Below, one piece after another: positions 3,647-20,442 of a stretch of 64,000 bases of DNA. The notes under the pieces are model-generated. The model did not search any database. It was not told the origin of the DNA and worked only from the letters and a program-made list of their open reading frames with translations. Numbering within the stretch: position 1 is the stretch's first letter; each line of letters begins with the position of its first letter. The position numbers were made by a program, and so were the translations under genes. The stretch is from a virus (lineage: Duplodnaviria; Heunggongvirae; Uroviricota; Caudoviricetes): positions 1 through 64,000 of IMG/VR virus record IMGVR_UViG_2681813455_000010; one strand, given 5' to 3'.

Positions 3647-3809
3647 TTGGGGGTATCTCCACTAAACTGAACAGCAAATCCCCTCAATTGCTTGTAGAGT
3701 TTGGGGTACTTAAATAGACGTCAAAAGACTAAAAGGGGCATTAATATACTGATTATAAGAGGTTTTTAAATACTTGAGTAGACTTGGGGAGACGTTAGAA
3801 TGGTGCCGA

Positions 3810-3829
3810 TAATAGGAGTAAAACACTCG
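3810..3829. repeat. 20-bp direct repeat ATGGTGCCGATAATAGGAGT (reverse complement of tRNA-Thr 3' end incl. CCA); putative att site
   Basis: Identical 20-mer recurs at 16377-16396; flanks integrase-containing element. Confidence 0.65.
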
Positions 3830-3905
3830 ATTAATCTCGTGTTAATGCCATCACCTACGACCATTACTAATTGATTGAATCTTATAGAAAAAATCATCAT
3901 TTTCT

Positions 3906-5240
3906 ATGCGTTACAATCAATTTTCACATTACAAACGCTCCGACACTTTAGCCGGGGAGTTTATGAGATACAAGCCCAATCAATACATAATCTGTGATTC
4001 TTACGGTAACTACTATTTAAGGATCACGCTGCCTGTGTATATGCAGCCCTTTTTTGAAGGAAAAAGGACGTTTGTCAGGAGTCTGCACACAAGTAATCTT
4101 CGTGTTGCACGTAGAAAGCGTGATCAGATTGCAGATGAATACCATTGCTTACGGGAGAGTGTCGCCCCTGTAAACAGCACAATAGAGAACACGCTGGAAC
4201 TGTTACGCAGTAAGGCTAAATACGCCAAAACAGCTACCAGAATGCAAGATACAGCGTCTTCGTGTCCGTCATTGCTTAAAATTCTTGAAATCTACCTGAC
4301 AATTAACAGCACGAAGAAGAAGCCAGCCACTTTAGCTAAGGCAAGAAAAGCGGTAGAGATGTTTCTCTCCTACCGTAAAAAGCCTGATATTGCATTGCAA
4401 GATGTGAGCCGCACCACTGTTACAGGCTGGATTGAACACATGCAAAAAACCCTTTCACAACAATCAATTGCAAATTATATCAGCCCAATGGCCCAGCTAT
4501 GGGAGTTAGCTTCATCACGTTACCACGATGCGCCAGAAAGGGCGCTCTCCCCCTGGCGAGGGCATAGGCTTGATGTGGCACAAAGTAGAGAGAGCTACGA
4601 GGCATTTTCTAACAAAGAGCTATTGCAGGTGTTGCAAGTATTTTCCGGTAATTCAGCAGAAAACAAAGAAATGATGGCTTTGTGTCTTATCGGTGCTTAT
4701 ACAGGTATGCGGATCAATGAGATAGCAAGTCTCACAATAGACGATGTGAAAGAGATCGAAGGTGTGCTGTGTTTTGAAATCACACAGGGAAAAACGAAAG
4801 CTGCGGCGCGTGTTGTGCCTGTACATAGCCTTATCACTCCGTTGGTGTTGTCGCTGCGTGAAAAGCCTCATAATGGCTTTTTGTTCTATCACGCCAGCAT
4901 TACAGAGCGTGCTGATGGTAAACGTTCCACGTGGCACACGCAGAGATTTACAAGAGCTAAACGAAAGGCTTTAGGGGAAAAGGGAACAGAAAGGAAAGTG
5001 TTTCATTCTCTGAGACACGGAGTAGCACAGCTTCTTGATCGAAATCAAATTCCAGAAGACAGGATCGCCCTTCTCCTGGGCCATACACGCGGCAATACAG
5101 AGACATTCCGCACATATAGCAAGAATGCAGCTTCTCCAGTAGAGCTTAAAAACTATATTGAGCTTCTACGCTACCCTGAAATAGAGAAAGGCTTATCAAT
5201 CAATAAAAAATCAAATTTAAGGCGTAAAACAACGCCATAG
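3906..5240 (+). CDS. int: tyrosine-type site-specific integrase
   Basis: 444-aa ORF with ATG start; C-terminal catalytic pattern ..HSLRHGVAQLL..LLGHTRGNTETFRTYSK.. (R..H..R/H..Y) typical of tyrosine recombinases. Confidence 0.75.
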   Translation: MRYNQFSHYKRSDTLAGEFMRYKPNQYIICDSYGNYYLRITLPVYMQPFFEGKRTFVRSLHTSNLRVARRKRDQIADEYHCLRESVAPVNSTIENTLELLRSKAKYAKTATRMQDTASSCPSLLKILEIYLTINSTKKKPATLAKARKAVEMFLSYRKKPDIALQDVSRTTVTGWIEHMQKTLSQQSIANYISPMAQLWELASSRYHDAPERALSPWRGHRLDVAQSRESYEAFSNKELLQVLQVFSGNSAENKEMMALCLIGAYTGMRINEIASLTIDDVKEIEGVLCFEITQGKTKAAARVVPVHSLITPLVLSLREKPHNGFLFYHASITERADGKRSTWHTQRFTRAKRKALGEKGTERKVFHSLRHGVAQLLDRNQIPEDRIALLLGHTRGNTETFRTYSKNAASPVELKNYIELLRYPEIEKGLSINKKSNLRRKTTP

Positions 5241-5320
5241 ACGCAATAAAGAGGCTTCAACATAATTGGTAGCCTCTTTTATAATTACATCGTTACAGAG
5301 CGTTTTAGAGGCGTTTACGG

Positions 5321-6034
5321 CTATTCCTGTTTAAAGGCAGGCGTAATAGTGTCTTCACCTTCACTACTTGATTTTTCAGTGTTAACACGTTTTTTCATAT
5401 TAGCCCCGATGTTCTTAGATGGCTGTGTTTTGAGAGCTACAGTGTTTACAGTGCCATACGACACTAATCTGATTTGCTCAAATTCCAAATCAAATACCAG
5501 AGATTCGCTTGCTTCTTCTGTGTATTCGATGCCTGTTAAAACAACGTTCTCAAAAGTTTTATTTTCTGTAACAAGAAGAAAAGGCTGTCTACTGTCCATA
5601 ATCTGATTTAGATAATCAATCGCTAATGATCTTCTGTTCCCGTTCACCCCTGCACTCTTTAACAAGCCAGGATCGCTTTTAATCGGTGTTTCAGTGATCC
5701 TTCCTTTAAGAGAAAACTTATTGTTTTTAATTTGAACGTGATCAGACACAGTAGCACCATTTTCTACGGGGTAGCTTGTGACATCTGCCGAACGTCTCAC
5801 GTTCACATCGTCTACACTGTCAAAGGCCAGTGCCATATAATTTTCATAAACGTCATTGCCAGAAGATGCCAAGCCACTGGTAACAATAGCAAATCCGTTC
5901 TCTCCTTTTGTTTTATTAGCTTTGCTATTTTCGTTTTTTGTAGAGTTTATATCTTGTTCTGCTTTGTAAACAGCCTGAACGTGTTGTTCTGGAGTATTTG
6001 CTGCACGTATGGTTAAAATCCCGGCGGTCGCCAT
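5321..6034 (-). CDS. hypothetical protein (237 aa)
   Basis: ATG start with AAGGAAA Shine-Dalgarno; co-directional with neighbouring gene block. Confidence 0.45.
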   Translation of the reverse strand: MATAGILTIRAANTPEQHVQAVYKAEQDINSTKNENSKANKTKGENGFAIVTSGLASSGNDVYENYMALAFDSVDDVNVRRSADVTSYPVENGATVSDHVQIKNNKFSLKGRITETPIKSDPGLLKSAGVNGNRRSLAIDYLNQIMDSRQPFLLVTENKTFENVVLTGIEYTEEASESLVFDLEFEQIRLVSYGTVNTVALKTQPSKNIGANMKKRVNTEKSSSEGEDTITPAFKQE

Positions 6035-6067
6035 AATAATAATTTCCTTGTAATGTTATGGCGGGAA

Positions 6068-7897
6068 TTACCCGCCGTTGGATTGTCCTGATAAGCTGGT
6101 TAATGTTAATGATTTCAAGAAGCTATCCCGACTTGCTCTCGCTGTAAAATCCACATAATCGCTTAATCTGGATGTGTCAGAATTAATAGTAAGAGGAACC
6201 TCTGTTACCACTTCAAATGTAGGATTCAGATTAAACACAGGAGATAAATTATAAGCCGGAGTTGTCATTGCAAGATTATTTAAAGCACCCTGTTTGAGAT
6301 TGGTTATCGGTGCTTCGCTGACTGACATTTTTACATCTGACACAGAAGATTTATCATCGAAAAGCAATCCCTTAATCGTATTAAATAGAGAATGACTATT
6401 ATCAGGTGTAGTTGTTGCAGTGCCAGCGCCTTTATATTGATCAGGAACGAGATTAGAAAGATTCTGTTTCATTCCTTCATTGCTTAATGGCGGTGCATCT
6501 CCCATATTTTTCTGAATAGCTTCCGTCTTATCATCATTACGATTAAACCAGTTTACAATCTTCATAATAGCTTCAAAGAGACTTCCTGTAGCTTCTCCCA
6601 GCTTCGTAAAATACGGAGTGAGATTAGAAAGGTTTTTCATAAACTCTTCCGTTACTTTTGGATCAAGAGATTTCATAAAGCCGTCTACGAATGCTACTTG
6701 TCTTGCATCAGAAAGCTGTGAAAGCTGTCTGTTTAGTTCTCTGAATTTAACGATAGATTCTTGCTGTGTTTCTGTTAGCCATTTTCCAGAGGCTTTTTGC
6801 TGATTAATACTTTCTTGTACATCTTTAACGGAACGTTGCCAATATTTTGACGTAAGCATCAAATCATCGCCCAGGTCTTCTAAACGTTGTCCAATTTGGG
6901 AGTCTGAAAACCCTTTTTTCATCATTCCATTAACAGCCTTAGAAATTAATCCGGCTGGATTATCAGCAAATTTTTTAAGGTCGCTTTTGTTAATAACACC
7001 GATGTTTAGAAGTTCATTAATAGCGTTATCACCGCCTTTCCATTCAGATTTTCCGGTTTTCTTATCTTTCACCAATTCAGCTTCACTGTAGGATTTTGCG
7101 GCACGTTCCCTAACATCTTTCATCTGATCCAGGTATTTTCTAGCCCCTTGATCACCCATCATAGAGTCAACGCCGTTTCTATAGGCCCATTCTGTAATGT
7201 TATACATCTGGTTAACGTCTACACCGCCCAGCTTGGCACGTTGAATTAGCTCACCTTGCGTGTCAGCGTTAGCGAAGCTATTAGCCATAAATTCAGCGGT
7301 TTTGCTTGCAGCCATCACGCCAGCCGCCGCTGTAGCGCCTCCAAATAACAGAGCGCCCATAGTGGCGGAATTCCCTGATCCTCCCTTAACGGGGGCTAAT
7401 TGAGCTTTTCTGTTGCCATTAATCTTACGTTGTTGCTGTTGTAAGCGTTTCATCTGGCTATTCATACGTGCAAGCGAGATAGCCCCTTGCTCATATTGTT
7501 TCGCTATCTCTCTAGCCTGTGCAATAGCTTTATATTGTTCCGCTACAGAGAGGCGGTGCATTGCACTAATGCTTGATCCAACGTCTAAAAGCTTTAGTTC
7601 AGCTTTCTCCTTACGTGCTGCTATTTGTTGCTGTTGCCTTGCCTGTGCTCTTGCTGCGGCAGCTTGTGCTCTTTGATTCTGTTTTTCTGTTTTAGCTTTC
7701 TGTTGAGCAATCTTGTCTACTTCGCTTTGTGCTTTCTTATAGCCTTTAGTGACATTATCAAACCTCAGTTTAGCTGGCTTGATATTATCAGTGAATTCTT
7801 TTAGGCTTGTAATAGAGTCTTTCGCTTTTTTCAAGCTGTCTTTATCTACACTAAATGTAACTGTGTTCTTAATTTTAGAAGTGTTAATTTCTAACAT
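6068..7897 (-). CDS. hypothetical coiled-coil protein (609 aa) with Gln/Ala-rich helix and Gly/Ala-rich hydrophobic segment; tape-measure-like or scaffold-like (speculative)
   Basis: ATG start with AGGGGA SD; long heptad-like Q/A/R-rich stretch and GALLFGGATAAAGVMAAS segment. Confidence 0.5.
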   Translation of the reverse strand: MLEINTSKIKNTVTFSVDKDSLKKAKDSITSLKEFTDNIKPAKLRFDNVTKGYKKAQSEVDKIAQQKAKTEKQNQRAQAAAARAQARQQQQIAARKEKAELKLLDVGSSISAMHRLSVAEQYKAIAQAREIAKQYEQGAISLARMNSQMKRLQQQQRKINGNRKAQLAPVKGGSGNSATMGALLFGGATAAAGVMAASKTAEFMANSFANADTQGELIQRAKLGGVDVNQMYNITEWAYRNGVDSMMGDQGARKYLDQMKDVRERAAKSYSEAELVKDKKTGKSEWKGGDNAINELLNIGVINKSDLKKFADNPAGLISKAVNGMMKKGFSDSQIGQRLEDLGDDLMLTSKYWQRSVKDVQESINQQKASGKWLTETQQESIVKFRELNRQLSQLSDARQVAFVDGFMKSLDPKVTEEFMKNLSNLTPYFTKLGEATGSLFEAIMKIVNWFNRNDDKTEAIQKNMGDAPPLSNEGMKQNLSNLVPDQYKGAGTATTTPDNSHSLFNTIKGLLFDDKSSVSDVKMSVSEAPITNLKQGALNNLAMTTPAYNLSPVFNLNPTFEVVTEVPLTINSDTSRLSDYVDFTARASRDSFLKSLTLTSLSGQSNGG

Positions 7898-7911
7898 TTA
7901 AAATCCCCTTA

Positions 7912-8115
7912 TTAATCATTTTTATCACCTTCTTTACTTAAGAAATGGTGTAGAGCCTGATCAATACTCTCGTTTAATCTGAACATACGGGCTTTTACTC
8001 CTTCATATGGAACATCTAAAAGAGAACAGAGATATTTCAGATTTAACAAGCCTCTAGAATCATTAGCATCTAGATGTACGTGCACACCATTTTTTGATTT
8101 CAAAATCACTTCCAT
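7912..8115 (-). CDS. hypothetical protein (67 aa)
   Basis: Short ORF tightly packed between neighbouring minus-strand genes. Confidence 0.35.
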   Translation of the reverse strand: MEVILKSKNGVHVHLDANDSRGLLNLKYLCSLLDVPYEGVKARMFRLNESIDQALHHFLSKEGDKND

Positions 8116-8201
8116 ATTTTAATCACCTCTCAAAATTTAAAAATAAATAAAAAAAAGGCGAAGCGTGAATACACGCCACGCCTCTATTACACGTTAAAAT
8201 A

Positions 8202-9230
8202 TTATTTAACAGTGATTTGAACGGAGAAGCCTACACCGTGGTTTACAACCATCTGGCTATTCTCTGTAACAACGTTAACAGCATCACCACGAGAAGATTC
8301 ATAGCTGTAGCTATAGACCTCAGTAGGGGCGGCATTGATCAGTTCAAAGGTGCTGGAAGCAGCCCCGTAGATGTTCTGATATACGTTAGAGCCTTTAGCG
8401 AATTTAGGCACAGCTACAGCGTCTGCGGTCATATGTGCCAGGTGTAGCGGATCTACCAGTTTAATAACATCAATGTTAGTTCCTGGAATAGTGAACGCTG
8501 TCACTCCTGGCAGCAGGTCACGACGCTGATACACAACGTTCCCTTCTTCCAGTGGGCTTACATACTGGAATGCGTTTGCCATACCAGCAGAGAATCGAAT
8601 TGCAGAGAAGGCGTCAGGTTTACAGAAAACAACAATACGCTCTACAGCAGCCGCCTGACTCTGTGCTTTTTCAATAATATCAGTAGCAATCTGATCAAAT
8701 TCTTTAAAAATCTTCGTGGTGTCAGTGCTGGAAGCGTTCACAGTGGCTTTCATAGCTGATACGTTAAACAGCTTGCCCCACTCAATTAACACATCATCAG
8801 TTTTCGGTGTGTAAGTTTTACCGCTAAACAGAGATGCAGCTAGCACGCTCTCTTTTGTACGCTGATACGCTACGTGATGTTTTGCAACATAGTCAGCATA
8901 GATATCAGTGAGTGTTTCCTGAAAATCAGTGCCAGGCTTACGCTTGCCTTGAACATCAGAAGGACGGATCACATCTTCACGAAGAAAATACGGGATTTCA
9001 ATCAGCCATTCTTTACCTTGTTCTCGCTTAGTAACATTGTGTTCAGAAGAGAAACGAGAGGTTTCTTTGTTGAACAGAGATTCGTTGCTTTCGACAAGCT
9101 GGGAAACAGCTACTTTATGAGATGTAACCCCTACAGAATCCGTAAAATCAAGAGTAGAAAGCAGATAGTTTCTAGTGCTATGCGCAGAGAACAGAGGAGC
9201 TAAATCAACGTAATCATTACCTAGAATCAT
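8202..9230 (-). CDS. hypothetical protein (342 aa); possible major capsid protein of lambda gpE-like family (weak, pattern-based)
   Basis: ATG start with AAGGA SD; size and C-terminal half pattern (..RIVVFCKPDAFSAIRF.., ..VVY..) loosely resemble lambda gpE; no search run. Confidence 0.5.
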   Translation of the reverse strand: MILGNDYVDLAPLFSAHSTRNYLLSTLDFTDSVGVTSHKVAVSQLVESNESLFNKETSRFSSEHNVTKREQGKEWLIEIPYFLREDVIRPSDVQGKRKPGTDFQETLTDIYADYVAKHHVAYQRTKESVLAASLFSGKTYTPKTDDVLIEWGKLFNVSAMKATVNASSTDTTKIFKEFDQIATDIIEKAQSQAAAVERIVVFCKPDAFSAIRFSAGMANAFQYVSPLEEGNVVYQRRDLLPGVTAFTIPGTNIDVIKLVDPLHLAHMTADAVAVPKFAKGSNVYQNIYGAASSTFELINAAPTEVYSYSYESSRGDAVNVVTENSQMVVNHGVGFSVQITVK

Positions 9231-9248
9231 TTATTATTATTCCTTTTA

Positions 9249-9611
9249 TTAAGAAGTGAAAACCGTATTAAAGCCTTCAAGCTGGAAGCCTTTTTTAATT
9301 AATGCTGTTTTTGCTGCTTCACTTACAGCATTCAGGGCATCAGCTTTAATGCACACAAGGCCAGCATTGCTACGTAGCACATCTACAGGCTTGTTTTCTC
9401 CTGCCGTTACAAATTCACTCATAACAACATAGATATCATCTCCTGATTCATATTTAGCGCCCGTGCTTGTGATCAAGTCGCCACACTCAACATCAGCAGG
9501 AAGAGAAGCAAAAACCTTGCTTTCTACAGAGGCAAACGGATCAGTACAATAACTTACAATATCTGTGAAAGTCTTTCTAACTGGAAACAGAGTGTCTAAA
9601 TCAATAATCAT
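9249..9611 (-). CDS. hypothetical protein (120 aa); possible head decoration-like protein (position-based guess)
   Basis: ATG start with AAGGAGA SD; immediately upstream of capsid-like gene. Confidence 0.4.
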   Translation of the reverse strand: MIIDLDTLFPVRKTFTDIVSYCTDPFASVESKVFASLPADVECGDLITSTGAKYESGDDIYVVMSEFVTAGENKPVDVLRSNAGLVCIKADALNAVSEAAKTALIKKGFQLEGFNTVFTS

Positions 9612-9820
9612 TTAGTAATCTCCTTAGCTTTTAATTTGATTAATTCATTAAGGGAAGGTGTAGACGGAGAAGAAGGAGAAAAATATTTTTCAACACATCT
9701 TTCTACTTCCTCTACAGAACACCCAGCGTATTTAGCTACCATTTCGGTAATTTGTGGATTAATTTTCAGCATTTCATCTTTATACTTGATGATTTGCTCT
9801 TTATCATTTAAGAACAACAT
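9608..9820 (-). CDS. hypothetical protein (70 aa)
   Basis: ATG start, 4-bp overlap with downstream gene (coupling). Confidence 0.4.
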   Translation of the reverse strand: MLFLNDKEQIIKYKDEMLKINPQITEMVAKYAGCSVEEVERCVEKYFSPSSPSTPSLNELIKLKAKEITK

Positions 9821-10169
9821 TTATATAAACCTTGTTACCTTGTTTAAAGTAAGAAATACAACTTTTAAGTTGCATAACGGGCAAAATAAAAGGCAGCATT
9901 TAGAGCCGCCTTTTATTAACTTGTACCTATGTAATTACCCTATGTTATGCATACTCCAAGATGTATGCATAACAAAGGAAAAAAGAGGTAATAATGACAC
10001 AGTATTACTTAAGGAGGAGAAGCGGGGAGCGGAGATTTTACTCCCCTTTAACGACAAGAAGAATTTTTAATATCGAACCAATAAAGGAAAAATAATCACC
10101 CCTATATAATTATATTAACATACAATAGATGAAATGTCAAGATATTTTACAACTTTTTTGTTGCTTTTT

Positions 10170-10538
10170 TTATTCTTCTGTGATAGTAGCGCCTAAGCGT
10201 TGAGCTAGTTCAACAAGGCCATCTCCCACATAGCGAACATCAGATTCAATATCTTCTATCCAGTTTGAGAGACTCCATATCTGATCCGCTGTCAGATATG
10301 CGTTCTCACGCTTACAGAGCATCTCTACACGCTTAGAGAGGTGCTCAAAGGCATTCACAGCTAAATCCCAGTGTTTAAACGCCTCATTGAGTGCCGCTGG
10401 CGTGTTTTCTCTGTATGCTTCAAGTTCAGCACGGTTTAAAGGCAGGAGGTAATCATCCTCATAATAATTAATTAGTGAGTAAATTGTGTCATACGTGTTT
10501 TTGTTCATATTAAAAGTCTCCATAGTGATCAGCACCAT
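10170..10538 (-). CDS. hypothetical protein (122 aa)
   Basis: ORF in co-directional block; overlaps upstream gene end. Confidence 0.4.
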   Translation of the reverse strand: MVLITMETFNMNKNTYDTIYSLINYYEDDYLLPLNRAELEAYRENTPAALNEAFKHWDLAVNAFEHLSKRVEMLCKRENAYLTADQIWSLSNWIEDIESDVRYVGDGLVELAQRLGATITEE

Positions 10539-10920
10539 CTAAAATTTGGAATTCAGGGACTAAATTATTTAGGCCATTGGTGGCGAGATAACCGACGTAG
10601 TGATTATAATCTTCAAATCCTAAAATCTGGTATTTGCGTAAATCAGAGCTATCAACGATATACTCTTTTCTTTTTCTAGGTTTCCAGAATACGCCAGGTG
10701 TTGAAGATAAGATTTCTTGTAAGGCGTTAAATTCATCTCCACAAGGCACAGAGGGAGAATGTTCTATGATCTCTGTTTTCCATTCGCCAGGGGCGCTATT
10801 TTGCTTGGTGAGCGTAACTAGCTCTTTAAAGTCTTTACGTCTTAGAATAGATTTAGGTTTACTTAGAAGAGAAGCTGAATCACCGATTTTCTTAACAACG
10901 TTGTTTTTTCTTTTTGCCAT
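10510..10920 (-). CDS. hypothetical protein (136 aa), basic N-terminus
   Basis: ORF in co-directional block. Confidence 0.4.
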   Translation of the reverse strand: MAKRKNNVVKKIGDSASLLSKPKSILRRKDFKELVTLTKQNSAPGEWKTEIIEHSPSVPCGDEFNALQEILSSTPGVFWKPRKRKEYIVDSSDLRKYQILGFEDYNHYVGYLATNGLNNLVPEFQILDGADHYGDF

Positions 10921-11052
10921 TATTTACTTTTCCTTTTCTTTTAAAGGAAAACACCCCGAAATATGCTTCTAACGTGATAAAGAACAATAACCAATACATA
11001 GCTACTATCATAATAATGTTTTCCTTTTATATTTTAATTACATAGAGAGATT

Positions 11053-11331
11053 TTAGAGAGTGGAATAGATGAAGTCTATTTCTTTATCCAGTCTTTTGAG
11101 ATTGAATGTAGAGAAAGATAATTCTTTAATCTCTATAACACCGAAATTTGATAGCTGTCTAAGCCAGAATTTTAAACCATCTTCAGAGCACCCTGCTCGA
11201 TGTAACACATCGCTATATTTTAGCGGTGTTGGCTTTCCTTTATAGAGGTAAGCAAGTGTTTCATAGATGCGTTTTCCTGTGTCATTACACTGAATTCTGT
11301 CTACTTGATTTTTTACTAAATATTGAATCAT
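11053..11331 (-). CDS. hypothetical small DNA-binding-like protein (92 aa)
   Basis: ORF in co-directional block; helix-turn-helix-like middle segment (guess). Confidence 0.35.
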   Translation of the reverse strand: MIQYLVKNQVDRIQCNDTGKRIYETLAYLYKGKPTPLKYSDVLHRAGCSEDGLKFWLRQLSNFGVIEIKELSFSTFNLKRLDKEIDFIYSTL

Positions 11332-11342
11332 AACCCTCCTTA

Positions 11343-12035
11343 TTAAAATGGAATATCAAAGTCTTCATATACTTTGGGATGTTTCTTAGCAAAATATGCC
11401 TCAATACCATTTGGTCGTTTTAGCCCGTATCTACAAGCTAGTGAATTTGCAAACTCAATAAATGATGCCCCTGCTGTTCTGGTATTCTTCTGCTGGCAGA
11501 TAAGAGAGGCAAAATTCTCTAACACATCCTCCTCATTATCATTAGCTACCTTTTCATTTGATGAAACAGGTGTTTCTTCCGTCTCCCACGGCAAAGGCGT
11601 ATCCCAATCATCATCAAGAACATCAAAAGAAGGCTGTTTATGGCCTTTAGGTTGTTCCTGTGCTTCTTCTGCCTCAGAAAGATCAGAGAGTGATGATTCT
11701 CCTGGGGGAGTAATATGTGCATCTGTGAGAGGGAGAGCATTGTAAATCAAAGATGAAATATACGGATCAGGATGTGGGGATGTTTCTAATAATCCCATCT
11801 CTTTAAGATCGTTTATCTTACGTTTAATTGTTGACGATGAAGACTTAAAAATCTTAGCTAATGTTTCGTGACTTTCATAACAATTAAGGTTGTTTTCCTG
11901 ATAACTAAGGAATCGAAAATAAAGCACAATATGTAATAGATCTAAATCTTTTCCTTGAGGGAATTTATCAGAATAAATCTTTGATACATTATCAAACGTG
12001 TCATAGTGTTTTGTAAAAGTTAGTTGATTAATCAT
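11343..12035 (-). CDS. hypothetical protein (230 aa) with N-terminal winged-helix-like segment and acidic linker; candidate replication or regulatory protein
   Basis: ATG start with AAGGAGA SD; ..ETLAKIFKSSSSTIKRKINDLKEMGLLE.. resembles wHTH. Confidence 0.45.
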   Translation of the reverse strand: MINQLTFTKHYDTFDNVSKIYSDKFPQGKDLDLLHIVLYFRFLSYQENNLNCYESHETLAKIFKSSSSTIKRKINDLKEMGLLETSPHPDPYISSLIYNALPLTDAHITPPGESSLSDLSEAEEAQEQPKGHKQPSFDVLDDDWDTPLPWETEETPVSSNEKVANDNEEDVLENFASLICQQKNTRTAGASFIEFANSLACRYGLKRPNGIEAYFAKKHPKVYEDFDIPF

Positions 12036-12086
12036 TAAAAATCTCCTTATAAATCACGCTTAATGCGCTACTAAAGTGAATGAGGA

Positions 12087-12254
12087 TCACTTACCCTTTT
12101 TTTGTTTGATGTTCTCTGCTGCTTCAGTAATGATTTCTAACATCAAATCACTGACCATAATTTGCCTTTTCTTGGCTTCAGCAAATAAAACCTTGAAGAT
12201 TTCAGGGTCAACGTGTAGGTAAGTGCGCGGAATTGGTTTCTTAGTTTCGCTCAT
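12087..12254 (-). CDS. small ribbon-helix-helix-like protein (55 aa)
   Basis: ATG 12254 with AGGAG SD; translation MSETKKPIPRTYLHVDPEIFKVLFAEAKKRQIMVSDLMLEIITEAAENIKQKKGK; below ORF-track cutoff, found by eye. Confidence 0.4.
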   Translation of the reverse strand: MSETKKPIPRTYLHVDPEIFKVLFAEAKKRQIMVSDLMLEIITEAAENIKQKKGK

Positions 12255-12273
12255 AGTTTTCTCCTTCTATTCT

Positions 12274-12462
12274 TTACTCTGTTTCAGATTCTTTTTCATT
12301 TTTTCTTAGTTCATCAATAATCTTGAGTGCTTCATTGAAGCAAGCTGCTCGTTCTGGATAACCTCGACTCCTTGCCATATTACGATTCATTACTACTTGA
12401 TGGCGTGTAAGCTCACCTTTTTTAAATGCCTGGATGACGTGCTCAGGTGTAAACCATTTCAT
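12274..12462 (-). CDS. hypothetical protein (62 aa)
   Basis: Short ORF adjacent to RHH gene. Confidence 0.3.
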   Translation of the reverse strand: MKWFTPEHVIQAFKKGELTRHQVVMNRNMARSRGYPERAACFNEALKIIDELRKNEKESETE

Positions 12463-13221
12463 AAAAAACTCCTTATTCAGTTAAAAGAAAAACACCTTGC
12501 AAGCCTGACGGCTTCAAAGTGCATTGATTTTGATTATTTAGAGAAGAATGTTTTTCTGTCCCTCTAATACCTATTATTACATATAAAGAAACATTTGTCA
12601 ATACCTTTTCACAAAAAATCTGATCTTTTTCATGCACTTACATTTTTTCTTAGCAATTCGTGCTCTTCTGTGTAGTGCTATTCTTCATTATTGTCTAAAA
12701 CGCTCTAAAACGCGTTCTAACGAGATTTTGATAAAAGCAATACATTCCCTTATGTAATGGCTGTTTAGCTCGCCAGAGGCTTATTTAAGGGGCTTATTTT
12801 GTATTTGTTAGGTATATGAAAAGGTAATGGTAGATATAAGATAGAGAGTCACTTTATAAAACGCTCTGTAAAGCCCTGTAGTGAGCTTATATATGTAGGC
12901 AATGCGTTTCCATTCCCTACCCTGCTTAATGCTGTTAGAGAAGCATTTAGACCCCTTATTTTTAATTAATTAAAGTATCCTCTATACATTCCTGTTATGA
13001 AACACCTCTGAATCCTTCATAAAACACATTATGACGCAAAGAACACTTTTCTAAGGTGATTCCCTTTCTGAACTCTGTTTCTTGCGTCAAAGAGCTACAC
13101 AGAGTTTATAAAGCTATTATTAATAATAAAGTAGATAAAGTAAGTAAGATAACTAAGATAGATAAGATTAATAAGATCAGAATTCTCTTTCGGTGTCGCC
13201 TCTGGCTTTTCCACCGAAAAC

Positions 13222-13384
13222 AATTACACGACTACAGAATGTAGGAAGTGGAATTGTATTGAGGCTTAGTGAAATTACACGAGGAAAGCAGAGTGTAATT
13301 GAGCTTTAGCCGCTCTCTCTTCGAGTAATTACACAACTACAGAGAATAACGAGAGTTATTAAGTGTAGGAGGGTAATTACGAGG
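13222..13384. repeat. cluster of 4-5 AATTACAC(G/A)A-containing repeats (two 17-bp near-identical copies at 13222-13238 and 13327-13343)
   Basis: Read directly: aattacacgactacaga / aattacacgagg / aattacacaactacaga / aattacgagg. Confidence 0.6.
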
Positions 13385-13620
13385 TAGAGAGATAGAGTTA
13401 ACACATAAGCAATCTATGATTGGTTAGGTGATTACTCTTCTGCGCACAGCGCAATAGTATTTCTTCGTGGGCGTTACCGCCAACGATAGTTACACGAAGA
13501 AAGTAACGCTTTGCTTTCGGTGTGAGCGGAACGGGCCAGCCAACGTAGCCCGAAAGGTAGCGGAGTAAGGCTGCTTGCCAGAGAGTGAAGCTAACGCCGG
13601 AAGGCAAAAGATCATATATA

Positions 13621-13821
13621 TATATAGATATAAAGAATATTATTATTATGATCTAATTAATAATCTAATATAGTTTTATTAATAGTCTTATTGTAGTTCA
13701 CAGTGACCTACCCCCTAGCTCACTATGACCTACCCCCTAGCTCATAGTGAACTACCCCCCTAGTTCACAGTGACCTACCCCCTAGGTCACAGTGACCTAT
13801 ATAGATATAAAGAATATTATT
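13621..13821. repeat. iteron array: ~4.5 tandem 22-bp repeats (TCACAGTGACCTACCCCCTAGC type, 13698-13800) bracketed by 24-bp AT-rich direct repeats (13621-13644 and 13798-13821); putative plasmid-type replication origin
   Basis: Tandem near-identical 22-mers read directly; flanking TATATAGATATAAAGAATATTATT duplicated; extra iteron copy near 13975-13990. Confidence 0.7.
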
Positions 13822-13872
13822 TAATTATTATTTAATTATTCTTATTAACTTATTCTTATCGGGTATCAGTTT

Positions 13873-13957
13873 TGATAGGGGTAGGGGTATCAATATTGAT
13901 AGGGGTATCATCGGTTTATTATTCTTTATAAACCCCTGTTAGACTTGATAGGGGTAA
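13873..13957. repeat. three to four TGATAGGGGTA repeats
   Basis: ttgataggggta recurring at ~13873, ~13896, ~13946. Confidence 0.55.
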
Positions 13958-14644
13958 CAGAATTCTGTGGGGGTAGCTCACAGTGACCTACCGTTACTAC
14001 CAACTTTCTTACAGAGAGCATTTCAGATAGCTGAATGTAACCTCTCGTTACATCCATTTGTCACATAGCACTCTGTGTAATGCCTTTCTATGTGTGTGCC
14101 ATAATCCCCCCTATATTCCCTGTGTAAATCATAGAATATCCCTAACTTATTCCTGTGTAATTCCATACTAAAAATTAAATGAAAAGTAGCTTAAAAGTGC
14201 AATTCTTACTTTCTTCACTTTTACATCACTTTCGCAAAGCCTTGTGTAGTGCGGCTTACAGAGCACTATCAGAAATTGTTGGCTAAAAAATGTTCTGCTT
14301 GTTTCTTAATGAGTTCTCTCGTTTGTGCAAATTTTAAAATTTATTTTGTTTTTACAGCCTTATTTCGTGTAATGCGTGGCATAGCAAGCCCTTTTCTTGT
14401 GTTGTCAAGACATTTGGCAACGTTCAAACATCTGTTTAGAAATGCCAAATTGTTGATCTAACAAATAAACCTGTATAAACAGAACACCATTTAATCTATC
14501 CCCCTGTGTATCCATTAGGCATACCAAATGAATACAGTTAAATCGTGTAATATTCCGTACCTATAAGGCTTGAAACAGACCAAATGAATACGGTATACTC
14601 ATTTGCATTGAAGTAGTGCCAAATCGATACATTAAGGGGCTTTT

Positions 14645-15184
14645 ATGAGCAATATCGGTTATAAGCGTGTGAGCACTGTAGATCAGAACACTGATCGCCA
14701 GCTTGCAGGAGTAACTCTCGATAAAGTCTTTGAAGATAAGCTGTCTGGTAAAGACACTAACCGTCCAGGCTTACAAGCGTGTTTAGCCTATCTGAGAGAA
14801 GGCGACACCTTACACGTGCACTCTCTCGACCGTTTAGGACGTAACACCTTAGACATCCTTGCTTTAGTTGAACAACTTAATAATCGAGGTGTGATTGTTC
14901 GATTTCACAAAGAAGGGATCATTGCAGACATTACAAGCGCGATGGGAAAAATGATGCTTACTATGTTGTCGGCAGTGGCAACGTGTGAACGTGAACTGAT
15001 GCTAGAACGTAAACGAGAAGCGCAAGCCGTCAATCCTACAAAGCGTGGTAAAGGTAAAGCAGTAGATAGAGAAGGTATAAAGAAAGCCCTTTCTGATGGC
15101 GTGTCAGTGCGTAAAACCGCCGAGATCTTTAATGTTGCTCCTTCAACGGTGCAACGTATCAAGAAGGAAGAAGAGGAGGCGTAA
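14645..15184 (+). CDS. serine recombinase (resolvase/invertase family)
   Basis: 179 aa; N-terminal YKRVSTVDQ motif with catalytic Ser, C-terminal HTH; ATG start. Confidence 0.8.
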   Translation: MSNIGYKRVSTVDQNTDRQLAGVTLDKVFEDKLSGKDTNRPGLQACLAYLREGDTLHVHSLDRLGRNTLDILALVEQLNNRGVIVRFHKEGIIADITSAMGKMMLTMLSAVATCERELMLERKREAQAVNPTKRGKGKAVDREGIKKALSDGVSVRKTAEIFNVAPSTVQRIKKEEEEA

Positions 15185-16376
15185 TGCCTCCTTGATATTT
15201 GGGGATTCTGGATTTTCCAGATCGGGGGGCGCTGAAAATCGCGTTAAGCACCTCTCGCAATCTAGCCATAAGGGAGGGGATATAGGTATTAAGATGTATT
15301 TATAGCTATTTATGGCTATTTATTTTTTATTTACCTTTATTTAAAAATAACCTTATAAATCAATAAGATACAGAACTATCTGTTTATATTTTAACCAATT
15401 AAATCAAGTTTAATACCCTTAAATAACCTGAAAATAGCCTTAAATACCCCAATAATTAATTTTAAGGCTTTCCGTGTTCTCTCCTGCATTATGAAAATGC
15501 AAAATAAGGCACAAAACAAGCTCACAGACGCATTAAACACACATCACCTATACATCCCTATACCAAGCAATGAAAACAGCGTTAGAATGCGTCCTGTTGC
15601 GCTCTGGAGATTTTCAGAAATCCTCTCTAAGCCATTTCAACTCACTAAGGAGTTTTCTTTCTTCGTTCTCTCGTTGCTTTCGCTCTAGCCAGGCTTTTCC
15701 TTCTGGCGTAGACAGGAACTTACGAGCGTGAATCTTGCGGTTATTCCGTTTGATAGCTGCAATGTTTTTCATCGTGTGCCTCTGTATTCATATGAAAATT
15801 AACAAGTTACATACTACACAGGGAGACTACGCATAAAACACAATACAAGTAAAGATACATTTTCAAGACAATAGGAGCCATAAAGCGCCTTTGATGGTTA
15901 TACCAAAAAATAAGCGCCGTAGGCGTATCCACTAAAAAGGGCTTTTTCACAAAAGCTATGAAGTCTTAGCAGTTCTTCTCTTATCAGGCACCCGTTGTAC
16001 TCCGGTGGACGAAACCGTGCTAGAGCTTGATTCTTTCCCGATCAAGTTAGGTTTTGAAGAGGTGGGCTTTAATCCACTATTGCACTTAAAACTCTTCCCA
16101 TCATTTAGCCTGTTTATCCTCTGCAACGTCTCACGACGTGTAGCATCATTGGACACCGCGCCAGGTGTGGAACATCTTGCTAAGAGTTTTGGTAGAAGGT
16201 TTAGAGACGGTGGCACGTCTTCCAGCTTCAAAGGAACTTGTTACGAGGTTGAGCCTGGGAACTACTCGCCCATACGTGTTACACTACCAAAGCCCATAAC
16301 AACGTATAGGCGTTTGTAAGTGATAACAGAAGATACAATTTCTTAGAGAAGTTAAGCTAAGTTATTGATTTTCTTG

Positions 16377-16396
16377 ATGGTGCCGATAATAGGAGT
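16377..16396. repeat. second copy of 20-bp direct repeat ATGGTGCCGATAATAGGAGT (att)
   Basis: Identical to 3810-3829. Confidence 0.65.
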
Positions 16397-16422
16397 CGAA
16401 CCTACGACCTTCGCATTACGAA
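16378..16422 (-). tRNA. tRNA-Thr (anticodon CGU, thrW-like) 3' 45-nt fragment (anticodon loop to CCA); not a complete gene
   Basis: Reverse complement TTCGTAATGCGAAGGTCGTAGGTTCGACTCCTATTATCGGCACCA has a T-arm (GTAGG/TTCGACT/CCTAT), acceptor 3' strand and CCA; sequence beyond 16422 cannot pair as acceptor/D-arm. Confidence 0.6.
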
Positions 16423-16761
16423 TTATAAGAATCCGTTTCTAATTCAAAGAATTACCCCATAAACACTGCGCTCACACGTCCCACCACATCAAAACATGTA
16501 AAGCCTTGCAAGCCATTGTGAGGCCTTATGTGTCTCAGTTTTGTCCCACCTTGTATTACGACTTGCATAGCCGATGAAGATAAACGCGACGACAAACGGC
16601 GCAGCAGTCTTCCTTTCTTTCACGACTTCCCCATCCCAAGCATGCATACCTTTCCGCCATAACTGTAGTGAATGTCTGTTATGAGCGAATTGAGGACGTA
16701 ACACTAGCAATTGCTGCTGGTTTGGAGCGTAGCAGAAAACCAGTTCGACAAAATTCGGTTG

Positions 16762-17802
16762 TTAGGCCTTTTTTAAGTACTCTCTCTGAATATTATTTGT
16801 AAGTTCAATTCTGTTAATCTCATTTGGGGTAAAAACCAAATTAACAAAACCCGCTTGTGCAGCGTGTAATTCCCCAGTATTTTCTATTTTCCCCTGCGAT
16901 TTTAACTCATATTCTAATGCATGGATGAGCTGTACCAATTTTTTACCCCTAGAAGTGAGTGGTGCCATAAAAGATGGCTGTCTATAACGATCATACCATT
17001 CAATCATGCATTCAGAAAAATCAATATCAGCTATATGTTGATGCACGATGAACTTTATATACTCAAACAAAAAATTTTGTTCTGAATCACCGACTCCGAT
17101 TCCAAAAGGTAAATTTTGATTATCCATTTCAATTTCTGCTATTCCTAATGCCATATCCATACCAAAATATAAAGATCGTCCGGCATTAGTTAGGCCAGTA
17201 CAGAAAAGATTGAAATATGAGACAGGAAATGAAGCATTGTTACTCTCAGTCTTAATCAAATAGTCTAGGATAGCTTCGACAGACATGATGTCTTGATCTA
17301 AAATCGCAAATCCTTCAAAGAGTTTTTTAGCACTGGTCAATTGCAAGACATTTGATTTGGGTATGGTAATACCCTTTGCATCAGTTGTCTTGGAAACTCT
17401 TAATGCATGGCGAACATCTTGCCAATAACTTAAATTTGTTTCTGGGTTGTGAATAATAATAAGCACAGGCAATGGAAATCTTTCCCAGTAAAATCGATGC
17501 TTCTCTTCCGGGTAGAAAATCCAATATCCATTACTTTCCTTAAAAAAGGACACCCCTGACTTTATTTGAACGGCTATTATCCTTCCTGTAGCAAAACCCT
17601 CGGGACTGACATACTCAATCTGACCATCAATTCCAACGTCAGCCATCGGAGTTTCACGCCAAATCTGGCCAATTTTGGCCATTGCTTCCGCTACAGCATT
17701 TACACCCAATCTTTCTTGAGAATTAGTCTGGTTATATTTTGGGAAATTCATATTTTTTCTCAATCGCATGACACTGGCAACATTTCCTTCAAAATCTGGC
17801 AC
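16762..17802 (-). CDS. DUF4365-like (restriction-endonuclease-fold) N-terminal domain protein with unknown C-terminal domain; candidate defence protein. Start uncertain (GTG 17802, ATG 17769 or 17751)
   Basis: N-terminus ..ERLGVNAVAEAMAKIGQIWRETPMADVGIDGQIEYV..IAVQIKSG.. matches recalled DUF4365 pattern with D...E.K-like residues; AT-rich. Confidence 0.45.
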   Translation of the reverse strand: MPDFEGNVASVMRLRKNMNFPKYNQTNSQERLGVNAVAEAMAKIGQIWRETPMADVGIDGQIEYVSPEGFATGRIIAVQIKSGVSFFKESNGYWIFYPEEKHRFYWERFPLPVLIIIHNPETNLSYWQDVRHALRVSKTTDAKGITIPKSNVLQLTSAKKLFEGFAILDQDIMSVEAILDYLIKTESNNASFPVSYFNLFCTGLTNAGRSLYFGMDMALGIAEIEMDNQNLPFGIGVGDSEQNFLFEYIKFIVHQHIADIDFSECMIEWYDRYRQPSFMAPLTSRGKKLVQLIHALEYELKSQGKIENTGELHAAQAGFVNLVFTPNEINRIELTNNIQREYLKKA

Positions 17803-18050
17803 GAAATTTCGCCAGAAATTTAAGTTTAGGTTTGTGGCCCATTGCTGACTTTCAATAGGTTTCTACTCAAACAAAGAAAACAATCCAAACAACCCGGTAC
17901 TGTCTATTTTTGAGTGTTCGAAAATCAACTCATAGTTATTGACTATTTATTTCTCCAGTGATTTTGTAACTTTTTTGGGGCACTGTAAAGTCACATCAGA
18001 CGAAGATTGTTCGTTTTTGGCATAGGGCTGCTGTTGCAACCCTGACAACC

Positions 18051-18341
18051 TTAGACTTCAACCGATTCAGAGATCTCTAACGCATCATCAACTTCAATGC
18101 CCAGATAACGGACTGTGCTTTCCAGTTTCTTATGGCCCAACAGAAGTTGGATCACCCAGAGATTCTTGGTTTTCTTGTAGATCAGGTAAGGTTTTGTTTT
18201 TCTCATGGAATGTGTGCTGTAAAGCGAATCTTCGAGACCAAGCTTTTCTACCCACCCATGAAAGATTCGGTTGTATTGCCGGGTTGATATGTGCCGATTA
18301 GTTCCGATCCGAGACCGGAACAAGAAGTCTTTACTATGCAA
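18051..18341 (-). pseudogene. C-terminal remnant (~96 aa) of a tyrosine recombinase/integrase
   Basis: ..HSMRKT..LLGHKKLESTVRYLG.. = conserved H-x-x-R / LLGH / Y catalytic box; no N-terminal domain upstream. Confidence 0.6.
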
Positions 18342-18376
18342 ATTAACAGGCTGTATACACAGCCTGTTAATTTATG

Positions 18377-19516
18377 CTAGAGCTTATAAAGCTCAGTTAA
18401 TCTAGCTTTTTCTTTGGCAAATTCTTCATCAAGGTTCGAGAAGTCTGGAAGTGTAACCATTAAATCCTTAAGTTGATGAATAACATTCCAGGCATCGTAA
18501 TGAATAAAGGGGTTTAAGCCAATAACGTTTCCCTCATCATTATTTTTAGATTTTCCTACACCACATAATTTGATGAATTTGTTGATTGCAGTTGTTTCAT
18601 TCCAGTCAGAAACAAAAAGAAGCAAGGCAGAAACAGCCAAAAGGGGATTGTTTTTTTTAACAGCGGATAAGCTCCTGATCTTTCTGAAAAGAAACTCGTG
18701 ATGTCTAGTTATTTTTTGTGCTATCCTTATCGTTGCTTCATATTTATCTTTAAGCAACCTTCTATCATAAACCTGATAACCTCGATCTCGTGCTACTAAT
18801 CGATATGCTTGTTTAGTAAATGTGGTGCTATTCACAAGATTATAGAAAATAGCATTATTCTTATTGGTCATATCGATCATCAATGATGGGTATTTGAATC
18901 TTAAAGAACGATAAACTTCATCGTTTATATCAAACCAAGATTTATTTTTTCTCTCTTCAGTGACAATATATGTATCTTCTCCTTTGCGGGAATACATGCT
19001 GGCTCTTACTAGATTGATCATGTGAGGGCTGTAGTTAACAGAAAAAGTGCCTGATTGGCGTAATTCAGTAAACCACCGTCGCATGTTTCTAATATCTTCC
19101 TGATTGAACTCTTCATGTTCAATACCTCTACATACAAGCTCTCGAATTATACTTGTAATCTCAGAGTCGGAAGTGCCTAATTTTATAAAACCATCCTTTG
19201 AAGAATCTATTTGTTTATCATCCCCATTGTAATGATCGCAAAATATTTTGTGCGCGTCTGTTCCGTCTTTTGTTCTAAACGAAAAATGAGATTGGCTAAC
19301 TATTTTATTTGTTGTTTTCGAATAACCTTCTGAAACAACAATTGCACCGCTTACATTACAAATTGGGCACTCTGCATCAAACGCAACAAATTCCTTGAAA
19401 TCACTAAAATTAAGTACGTTATTTGATAAATAAAGGTTTAGCAATTGAACTATGTCCAATTCCTTTTTGAATGTACGAGAATAGACCGTAATTGCCATTT
19501 GCACTCCCTTCGTCAT
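18377..19516 (-). CDS. hypothetical protein (373-379 aa); probable start ATG 19498 (AAGGGAG SD)
   Basis: Long AT-rich ORF with good SD; no recognisable family by eye. Confidence 0.5.
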   Translation of the reverse strand: MTKGVQMAITVYSRTFKKELDIVQLLNLYLSNNVLNFSDFKEFVAFDAECPICNVSGAIVVSEGYSKTTNKIVSQSHFSFRTKDGTDAHKIFCDHYNGDDKQIDSSKDGFIKLGTSDSEITSIIRELVCRGIEHEEFNQEDIRNMRRWFTELRQSGTFSVNYSPHMINLVRASMYSRKGEDTYIVTEERKNKSWFDINDEVYRSLRFKYPSLMIDMTNKNNAIFYNLVNSTTFTKQAYRLVARDRGYQVYDRRLLKDKYEATIRIAQKITRHHEFLFRKIRSLSAVKKNNPLLAVSALLLFVSDWNETTAINKFIKLCGVGKSKNNDEGNVIGLNPFIHYDAWNVIHQLKDLMVTLPDFSNLDEEFAKEKARLTELYKL

Positions 19517-20442
19517 AAATTCAGTTTGTATGAAATATTATCGCATAAAGATACTGATGAGCCAGTAATATAACTAGAAAATATTTTTTGTGGTTCAGCG
19601 ACCTAGACGTCTGCTACTGGCACAGAGCAGACCATCGGACTGAACTGAAGGTCCTCTCTGTGCGAGAAACGGAAGTTAGCAATTGTGATACAGACGTGGG
19701 GCATTACTCGCTTTACAGTGTGTTAATCAATTGGAAACAGGTCAGAATTTATTGGGTGGAATGACACCTTTAAACTTCTTGCGCATCGCAAGGAATATCT
19801 CCACCAGACGGTAAGACAGTAGATTGCGCCACAAGTCCTCAGAATGCCCTTTGCTGGGTTAACCACACGTCGTAATCATCCTTCCAGTGCAGCGGATCAA
19901 GATCGTAATGCTCATAGTCACGCGATTTCAAATACAAGCCCAGTGGTGTTATCCGTGAGCTGGACAGTGCTTCCGGCAACATGACTGAGACAGACAAAAA
20001 ATCAGTTAGTACAGCATTGACTCAGGTTGAGCAGGAGTTAAAACAAACTGGGCTGGAGCAGTAGAAGCCTGCAGTGAATTCCCTGAATCAGGCGATTAAG
20101 GTGGCTTAAGAGTCCGTGTATGCCATGTGCCGCGAGATGTCGTGCTATACGTGAAAGTCAGCGATATATATCGTTTTGAAGATGATTTAGGTTACGGGAG
20201 TGTCTCTGGGTGATGTATTACTTCATCGACATCGGCTACGCACGGGTTGCCGCGATGCAGCGGATGGAAGCTGTCTGGGAAAAGAAAGCTCCGCTTGCTA
20301 ATATTAGTACATCCGATGAAAAATCGTGTGTGAAAGTTGCAGATTAGTAATATACTAATGAAGAATGGAGATGTATTTTATATAATAAAAACATCTAAGT
20401 AGAGCTTTTTATTTTAAATCCTTCATTATTACTGGAGATTTT

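Follow-up and report, generated by a model that had tools for sequence, protein, structure and literature searches.

What is the function of the dense repeats in the middle of a small integrated element of Escherichia coli? The question is raised by a stretch of 64,000 nucleotides (nt) from a viral record (IMG/VR IMGVR_UViG_2681813455_000010, positions 1 to 64,000), called the window below, which is part of the chromosome of E. coli SF-468 (NZ_CP012625.1; window position 1 is record position 3,893,616). A sequence-only reading had proposed a replication origin and/or a partition site, built from three iteron families and lying inside a chromosomal island. The repeats do belong to an integrated unit, but the unspecified island is a discrete integrative, phage-satellite-like element of 12,597 bp (12.6 kb, window 3800-16396). 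We consider window 13607-13801 to be the vegetative replication origin of this element, with a probability of about 0.7; its function is likely that of an iteron-type theta origin served by a winged-helix initiator.

The repeats occupy a 2.2-kb gap (12463-14644) which holds no credible open reading frame (ORF), only short ones with TTG or GTG starts. Two candidates, at 13398-13607 (-) and 13056-13244 (+), were rejected as coding: they have no family matches, and close relatives carry 1-nt indels there. The region can thus be taken as non-coding, as had been assumed, and repeat and motif searches agree on the positions of all three repeat sets and of the 24-bp direct repeats. Relatives of the element were gathered from genomes, viral contigs, metagenomes and E. 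coli variants, and are referred to as L-numbered loci.

The centre of the gap is an array of five 22-bp iterons (class A, type 1). Tandem Repeats Finder reports 4.8 copies at 13694-13799 (score 133), and a repeat search finds five tandem copies at 13693-13801 and a sixth at 13973-13992. When up to three mismatches are allowed, TCACAGTGACCTACCCCC has six matches in the window, all within 13698-13995, while 0.02 are expected. Each iteron consists of a 17-bp palindrome, TAGnTCACAGTGAnCTA, followed by CCCCC. The spacing of 22-23 bp, that is two helical turns, keeps the copies in phase, and the copy number varies from 2 to 5 among relatives.

The array is preceded by an AT-rich leader, a putative DNA-unwinding element. 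RATCTWAT units occur in it at 13650 and 13662, and AGTCTTATTGT at 13683. Such units with a 12-nt spacing, often in the form GATCTnAT, recur in 14 lineages (25 seen, 3.0 expected), and both the GATC sites of the leader and the junction motif TCTTATTGT are conserved. In their sequence the units resemble the 13-mers of oriC and of iteron plasmids. Two AT-rich 24-bp repeats, at 13621-13644 and 13798-13821, are exactly identical. A search for DnaA boxes returned a 9-mer with one mismatch (TTTGTCACA/TTTATCACA) after the arrays in E. coli, L004 and L008, with about 1.7 expected by chance in the gap according to our estimate. An iteron origin is expected to have at least three in-phase direct repeats, each of about 17-22 bp, and an adjoining AT-rich element with short repeated A+T-rich units, and the locus has both. 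A third feature, a cognate initiator encoded by the same element, is indicated by covariation only.

This candidate initiator, called Rep below, is a protein of 230 aa with an N-terminal winged helix, a disordered acidic linker and a small helical C-terminal domain that ends in DFDIPF. It matches eight PHROG families, all of them replication-initiation, O-like or DnaD-like (best E-value 1.6e-9). Curated initiator families of Pfam (Rep_3, RepA_N, Phage_rep_O) are not among its matches at E<=0.01, and HTH_36, with 23.7 bits, stays a little under its cut-off of 25. NCBIfam yielded nothing relevant and a sequence search of the PDB no match. When the AlphaFold2 (AF2) model was compared with known structures, RepA_N initiators and the DnaD N-terminal domain were among the best matches to the N-domain, with weak Foldseek E-values of 0.008-0.045. 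RefSeq annotates the protein as a transcription factor. The family is small (in a set of 1.84 billion proteins it forms 38 clusters when the identity limit is 50%), and none of the element's replication proteins carries a curated family name.

An argument for Rep comes from its co-variation with the iterons. For 33 loci, the N-domains were clustered at 60% identity and the first array after the AT-rich leader was typed. Eight N-domain classes match eight first-array repeat classes one to one, in all 33 loci. The repeats are TCACAGTGACCTACCCCC for class A, AACAGAATTCTGTGGGGGT for class B, GGAAnTCATTTCC-TAGGTAGGTAG for class C, GGTATAGTGCCTnACCCC for class D, TGTAAC-N5-GTTACA for class E, GTCAnnnTGACCnACCCCC for class F, TATCA-N4-TGATAGGGGTA for class G and AAAGTACCAAAACGTTACTTTC for class H. 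In L004 and L008 the DNA upstream of the leader (the folded block described below) is almost identical, but the two loci have different iterons, and the identity of their N-domains is no more than 50%. The element of strain ETEC1748 (L044) has type-2 repeats only, and its Rep joins an unrelated N-terminal winged helix to a C-domain that is about 90% identical to that in the window. At the sequence level this is a clean domain swap. From the class pairing and the domain swap we therefore infer, by covariation and not by experiment, that the Rep N-domain recognises the iterons, and the 22-bp units are very probably the binding sites of the 230-aa protein. In lambdoid phages, too, the specificity of O proteins is exchanged as N-domain plus iteron cassettes. 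The pairing and the 78% A+T of the leader bear out the earlier description of the units as iterons beside an AT-rich, unwinding-type stretch, and with the PHROG matches the pairing also strengthens the case for the gene that had been named as candidate initiator.

The other end of Rep is suggestive as well. Its C-terminus (window 11343-11390) reads EDFDIPF and resembles the tip (DDDIPF) of SSB, the E. coli protein that binds single-stranded DNA. By the definition of the SSB-tip motif that we adopted, acidic residues followed by (I/L)-P-F at the C-terminal end (PMC5872125), the sequence of Rep carries this motif. Of 32 intact relatives, 30 have kept an acidic stretch with (I/L)PF at the very C-terminus, and they include two unrelated types of C-domain. 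The partners of the SSB tip are DnaG and a large number of further proteins of replication and repair (PMC5872125). The likeness suggests a route by which host factors may be recruited to an element that has neither a helicase loader nor a primase of its own.

We propose that Rep dimers would bind the palindromic iteron cores via the N-terminal winged helix, and that the Rep-bound array would melt the adjoining AT-rich stretch. Through its conserved C-domain, whose tip, (D/E)x(I/L)PF, imitates the DDDIPF of SSB, Rep would then draw in a host protein that interacts with SSB, for example PriA, DnaG, chi or RNase HI. Host-factor recruitment is proposed because no helicase, helicase loader or primase was recognised in the element in searches of Pfam and PHROGs, which were also used for the other element proteins discussed below.

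The roughly 420 nt upstream of the leader form a conserved folded domain, which would act as RNA or as + strand single-stranded DNA (ssDNA). It accounts for the first of the three supposed iteron families. AATTACACRA occurs exactly at 13222, 13273 and 13327, and with one mismatch at 13321(-) and 13488. Over the whole window the motif is not enriched (13 matches, 9 expected), and it is the clustering that is unusual. The AATTACAC copies pair with inverted partners, GTGTAATT, as arms of hairpins H1-H3. In other genera the sequences of the arms differ and the pairing is kept. Of the three proposed families, only the 22-bp array stands as the iterons of this origin; the first consists of helix arms of the folded domain, and the third is not part of the same origin but a second cassette (see below).

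The + strand folds with -163.4 kcal/mol (z -8.0 against shuffles), the - strand with -132.6, and the corresponding alifold values are -102 and -80. Covariation was analysed for 33 sequences below 96% identity, selected from 57 full-length homologues in a plain MAFFT alignment, because of which the figures are conservative. The consensus structure has 84 pairs, with 88% of the cells paired (79% in shuffles). Double changes occur in 35 pairs, and there are 241 compensatory cells, a number attained in none of 500 shuffles, which have 92. The covariation score is 0.267, compared to at most 0.072 when the pairing partners are slid. The block thus has a conserved, strand-specific structure with compensatory changes, as is generally expected of a structured RNA, and many G-U pairs point to the + strand. 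A highly conserved part is the GCGC-ACA-GCGC hairpin, whose loop carries a T in one sequence. A helix closing the whole block from 5' to 3' is present in the minimum free energy fold of the window sequence and is only partly supported by the alignment (helices 1-2).

A second E. coli type of the block (L011-like) shares only the core around this hairpin. In that type, L016, L020, L041 and L042 hold two copies of a GCGCACAGCGC hairpin at a distance of about 100 nt, and the hairpin, otherwise invariant, is expanded to GCGCACAGCGCACAGCGC in L031. Just upstream of the block (window 13129-13177) there is an AT-rich 9-bp tandem repeat, TAAATAAGA, of about four copies, which is specific for E. coli; other genera carry a different conserved sequence, …CCCTACCCTnTTTAAATCGCTCTACGGGC…, at this place.

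A search with Rfam 15 gave no match at E<=1 in window 3000-20000, L007, L010 and L013, apart from unrelated thiamine pyrophosphate (TPP) riboswitches. Sigma-70 promoters or terminators that would bracket the block gave only weak matches at the level of shuffles; in other genera a semi-conserved TTAAAT-like hexamer, aligned by eye, precedes the block without a -35 element. As there is no convincing promoter or terminator, both an RNA and a + strand ssDNA have to be considered. We see about an even chance that the block is an RNA, and a somewhat smaller one that it is a + strand ssDNA signal.

The block lies directly upstream of the unwinding element and is linked to the Rep gene, and we take it to belong to the replication module, where it may act in two ways. 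A transcript could run into the origin and serve as a pre-primer or as an activator, in the manner of ColE1 or pAMbeta1. Alternatively, the + strand could, like the G-site of R1, be a single-strand signal that primes the leading strand in the leftward direction; the geometry would fit both. In a more far-reaching version the block would represent a novel class among the large structured RNAs and would be required in cis by a Rep-dependent origin, working as pre-primer or activator together with an initiator that hijacks the host SSB interactome by its SSB-like tip; this version appears doubtful to us. On a different view, the block may be an independent regulatory non-coding RNA for immunity or for sensing a helper, and merely a neighbour of the origin. 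P4-type satellites use RNA-based immunity (the CI RNA of P4), and the covarying structure with its many G-U pairs on one strand would suit such an RNA. However, the block is kept together with Rep and the origin in short relatives that lack capsid genes, it is found upstream of the Rep gene on the opposite strand in 51 of the 54 loci with enough flank, with a fixed position and orientation relative to the unwinding element, and neither promoter nor terminator was found. We therefore consider an independent RNA to be unlikely.

An origin is not the only function that could be assigned to the arrays themselves. They might be operators, with Rep as a transcription factor that regulates the folded RNA or the operon and has no role in replication. 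This is less likely still, as the arrays are about 1.2 kb away from the best operon promoter, with the folded block between them, and always come after an AT-rich stretch with 13-mer-like GATC units. In addition, every PHROG match of Rep is a replication initiator, its SSB-like C-terminal tip points to the replication and repair interactome, and four to five in-phase copies accompanied by orphan cassettes are typical of origins.

Yet another conceivable function is a packaging site of the pac or cosB type, where Rep would be a small-terminase or Nu1-type factor that hands the DNA to the terminase of a helper phage. Genes for a capsid protein, a tape-measure-like and a Dit-like protein are present in the element, and neither a portal nor a terminase was recognised. 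Nu1-type proteins combine an N-terminal winged helix-turn-helix with a C-terminal partner-binding domain and have repeated sites, a build which Rep shares. But none of the terminase families in Pfam, PHROGs and NCBIfam is matched, structural comparison leads to initiators and DnaD, and short relatives without capsid genes keep Rep, block, leader and iterons, which makes packaging very improbable. The partition site of the sequence-only reading, finally, has next to nothing in its favour: arrays of palindromic units are known from type Ib and type II centromeres (parS/parC type), but no ORF of the element codes for a ParA, ParM or ParB-like protein (Pfam/PHROGs), and the element is integrative, with no stable plasmid form found.

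Behind the cognate array a second, complete origin cassette of class G is found. There are three exact copies of TGATAGGGGTA (13873, 13897 and 13946), which are contained in a 24-bp unit, GGGTATCAnnnnTGATAGGGGTA. Window 13800-13973 is entirely missing from L002 and L003, and their fifth iteron joins CCGTTAC directly. The inserted piece opens with a copy of the 24-bp leader found in the first cassette, and single units of class B and class E come after it. The class G cassette is the sole cassette in class G elements, including that of ETEC1748, and other E. coli elements string three to four cassettes together (O103 RM8385 and several further loci). We suppose that foreign cassettes and units, non-cognate for the Rep of the window, were joined by recombination at the shared 24-bp leader.

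Type-2 DNA was found in 267 genomes and the class G N-domain in 64, and therefore orphan cassettes are common. SF-468 is absent among the matches listed for class G Rep, which cover 60 of the 64 genomes. As the cognate protein was not found among the listed carriers, the second cassette looks like an orphan in this strain. Orphan cassettes may be relics, decoys or entry points for the initiator of a relative.

Table 1. Window positions of the features of the replication region and of the element that carries it.
Feature	Position	Strand	Basis or remark
Left 20-bp direct repeat (att) ATGGTGCCGATAATAGGAGT	3800..3819	.	exact copy of 16377-16396
Tyrosine integrase	3963..5240	+	Pfam Phage_integrase 2.6e-17; RefSeq annotation
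Dit-like protein	5321-6034	-	element gene
Tape-measure-like protein	6068-7897	-	element gene
Lambda-E-type major capsid protein	8202-9230	-	element gene
Candidate initiator Rep, 230 aa	11343..12035	-	PHROG matches; class pairing with iterons; AF2 model
55-aa ORF, ribbon-helix-helix-like (sequence pattern only)	12087..12254	-	ORF and annotation
62-aa conserved ORF, first gene of Rep operon	12274..12462	-	ORF and annotation
Promoter-like site TTGACA-17-TG-AATAAT facing Rep operon	12573..12601	-	11/12 matches, consensus only
Conserved folded domain, ~420 nt, RNA or + strand ssDNA	13186..13606	+	fold energy, covariation
Helix H1	13220-13235/13241-13257	+	
Helix H2	13263-13276/13297-13311	+	
Helix H3	13313-13341/13364-13395	+	
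Helix H4	13402-13414/13418-13430	+	
Helix H5	13442-13452	+	
GCGC-ACA-GCGC hairpin	13442..13452	+	8 stem positions conserved in 32-33 of 33, across genera
3' domain of folded block	13518-13551/13556-13599	+	
AT-rich leader, putative DNA-unwinding element	13607..13692	.	78% A+T; GATC sites
Five cognate 22-bp iterons (class A, type 1)	13694..13801	+	Tandem Repeats Finder, repeat and motif searches
Second origin cassette (class G, type 2)	13798..13956	+	24-bp leader repeat, AT-rich stretch, 3 units TATCA-N4-TGATAGGGGTA
Single type-5 unit AACAGAATTCTGTGGGGGT (class B specificity)	13956..13974	+	same unit is first array in all class B loci
Isolated type-1 iteron	13969..13995	-	C-tract on opposite side relative to main array
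Single type-4 unit TGTAACCTCTCGTTACA (class E specificity)	14036..14052	.	in class E loci, TGTAAC-N5-GTTACA arrays come first
res-like site, inverted 12-mers CCAAATGAATAC	14508..14640	+	directly upstream of resolvase gene
Serine recombinase, resolvase/invertase type	14645..15184	+	Pfam Resolvase 6.4e-34
Right 20-bp direct repeat (att)	16377..16396	.	runs into reverse complement of tRNA-Thr (thrW) 3' fragment

The repeat region is matched in 686 of 5,426 complete E. coli genomes (about one in eight), with extraintestinal pathogenic (ExPEC), Shiga toxin-producing (STEC) and enterotoxigenic (ETEC) strains among the carriers, and the family also occurs in other Enterobacterales. All lineages share one layout opposite the Rep strand, in which the folded block is followed by the AT-rich leader and by four to five repeats of about 22 bp, the sequence of which depends on the lineage. 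Short relatives without capsid genes were found beside the thiM TPP riboswitch or thiD (L004, L007, L009, L013, L044), the thiM-adjacent ones in E. coli, Enterobacter, Serratia and Buttiauxella. They consist of a resolvase or small recombinase, the gap with block, leader and iterons, the 55-aa ORF, Rep and one or two small genes. Defence-like genes (HATPase_c_3 with Hypoth_Ymh, GmrSD) adjoin the short thiM versions.

The distribution of the family weighs against a replication origin. Among 72,556 plasmid records there is practically no member of the initiator family, and near-identity DNA searches and protein searches turned up no free plasmid or phage relatives. Such scarcity in plasmid and phage collections would agree with replication that takes place only for a short time after induction, as it does in satellites. 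The label of a plasmid origin, which had been given to the repeats, is misleading in view of the plasmid records and of the integrative, satellite-like host element. The one plasmid-borne copy found (L124, NZ_CP126938.1 33000-48000) is inserted in an IncFIB/FIC plasmid of avian pathogenic E. coli. This copy has the gene order of the element in the window, with an IS3 inserted in the non-coding gap.

L002 and L003 are near-identical stand-alone contigs of 12.1-12.2 kb which align to the window from about 3866 to about 16375. The L002 contig has a 13-nt terminal overlap, TGTGATTGGCATA, and the L003 contig ends in repeats of the tRNA 3' end. In many assemblies (L002, L003, L056, L067, L108, L123 and others) the element is held as a separate contig of 12.1-13.4 kb, about its full length, and one such contig from a food metagenome has a coverage of 84. 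These element-length contigs could be excised circular copies, or only assembly breaks at the att sites. As for autonomous replication, assemblies of 12.1-12.6 kb, which equal the element in size, give the sole hints, and these are indirect.

Iteron origins with winged-helix initiators are well known, among them ori-lambda with protein O and the oriV of RK2, pSC101, P1 and F. The locus described here has in common with them four to five in-phase direct repeats of about 20 bp with internal dyad symmetry, and an adjoining AT-rich element with 13-mer-like units that contain GATC. It also shares the logic of the lambdoid and iteron initiators, where the N-domain sets the specificity, the C-domain contacts the host or partner machinery and cassettes are exchanged. 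Unlike in lambda, the origin is outside the initiator gene, about 1.6 kb upstream of it and behind the 420-nt folded domain, and there is no P-type loader. The SSB-like tip of Rep and the heterologous orphan cassettes behind the cognate one are further differences to ori-lambda and oriV systems.

The best and longest structural matches of the Rep N-domain are RepA_N proteins (RepA of pSK41 and pTZ2162; PDB 4pta, 4pt7, 4pql, 5kbj) and the N-domain of DnaD. RepA_N initiators are said, with Schumacher et al. (2014) as the source, to combine an iteron-binding N-domain with a host-specific C-domain, a two-domain logic that Rep would share. RepA_N origins are usually within repA. Rep differs from this group in that Pfam RepA_N is not matched by sequence, in that the Foldseek matches are weak, and in its hosts, which are Enterobacterales.

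The origins of phage-inducible chromosomal islands (PICIs) and of the Staphylococcus aureus pathogenicity islands (SaPIs) have element-specific iterons and an AT-rich melting region, and those of PICIs are found immediately 3' of pri-rep, with two iteron sets that flank the AT-rich region (PMC6092414). The element under study is likewise integrative and satellite-like, with iterons and an AT-rich melting region. However, its origin is upstream of the operon and behind the block, and no primase or helicase domain is found, so that it does not fit the definition of a PICI origin. The basic form, as represented by L002 and L003, has a single array on one side of the AT-rich stretch; two flanking iteron sets are only apparent in the window because of the second cassette.

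With RNA II of ColE1, pAMbeta1 (class D), the G-site of R1 and phiX-type primosome assembly sites, the folded block shares a long folded single strand beside the site of initiation. It has no relation to them in sequence or in Rfam, no promoter was identified, it is paired with an iteron-type initiator, and its length of about 420 nt exceeds by far that of known single-strand initiation signals. The system is set apart from all described ones that we compared by the origin behind a large folded domain, by the SSB-like tip and by the tandem heterologous cassettes. Its host element is also distinct, with genes for a capsid, a tape-measure-like and a Dit-like protein but without portal or terminase.

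On the right side of the gap, the downstream resolvase that had been noted is confirmed by its Pfam match, by the res-like site next to the repeat region and by a resolvase in the same position in the Serratia relative L009. The sub-sites are arranged as 12-4-12 (14508-14535), 12-3-12 (14580-14606) and a third single copy at 14619. As in the res sites of Tn3 and gamma-delta, the gene of a small serine recombinase directly follows about 130 bp with three sub-sites of inverted 12-mers at varied spacings. Unlike there, a transposase is lacking, and close relatives (L002, L003) have a different gene in place of the resolvase. The module may serve to resolve multimers. YGTGTAR, mostly in the form CTGTGTAAT, occurs in six + strand copies to the right of the iterons (14074-14552), and its inverted form contributes to hairpin arms to the left of them (13224-13490, -). 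The idea that a protein binds this motif to either side of the origin was considered and rejected, as the pattern is found in E. coli and is not conserved in other genera.

On the left side, the minus-strand operon comprises the 62-aa ORF, the 55-aa ORF, the 230-aa winged-helix protein and five small ORFs, followed by the capsid-type genes. The 55-aa ORF exists in two allelic types which are independent of the Rep class. About 100 bp upstream of the promoter-like site of the operon (window 12691-12734), two tandem copies of TCTAAAACGC overlap a palindrome, AACGCGTT, an arrangement that is kept in both E. coli block types. This site may be an operator for the product of the 55-aa ORF.

In SF-468 the element is integrated at a thrW tRNA fragment, and in the relatives L045 and L046 it adjoins an intact thrW beside proA. 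No portal, terminase or protease was recognised among its proteins (Pfam/PHROGs), and its gene set fits none of the satellite families that were compared (P4-like, PICI, cfPICI, PLE, PICMI). Prophage Sp1 of O157 Sakai (CP-933H) is also located at thrW, but it is a lambdoid remnant with different genes, and an identity with it was rejected. Literature searches turned up no paper on the element, on its origin or on SSB-tip mimics in initiators, and the element is most likely previously undescribed. To its left (window 1-3700) there are the autotransporter gene vat with a frameshift, a regulator of the MarR type and a fragment of an integrase. The right side (16400-64000) holds a DUF4365 gene, a second integrase fragment and a lambdoid prophage whose tail genes reach the end of the retrieved locus. 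Because of the integrase fragments and the prophage that flank the element, we regard thrW as a multiply occupied integration hotspot.

If our interpretation is correct, the family would provide eight naturally occurring initiator/iteron pairs that are orthogonal to one another and built on a common scaffold, and a candidate for a mobile-element initiator that ends in the SSB C-terminal tip motif. A folded RNA or ssDNA, large and conserved, linked to an origin and absent from Rfam, would be present in E. coli. The orphan cassettes hint at cross-talk between co-resident elements. Should the block and the SSB-like tip act as proposed, such cassettes would let related elements fire or titrate each other's initiators, and this would amount to piracy or incompatibility among satellites at the level of the origin.

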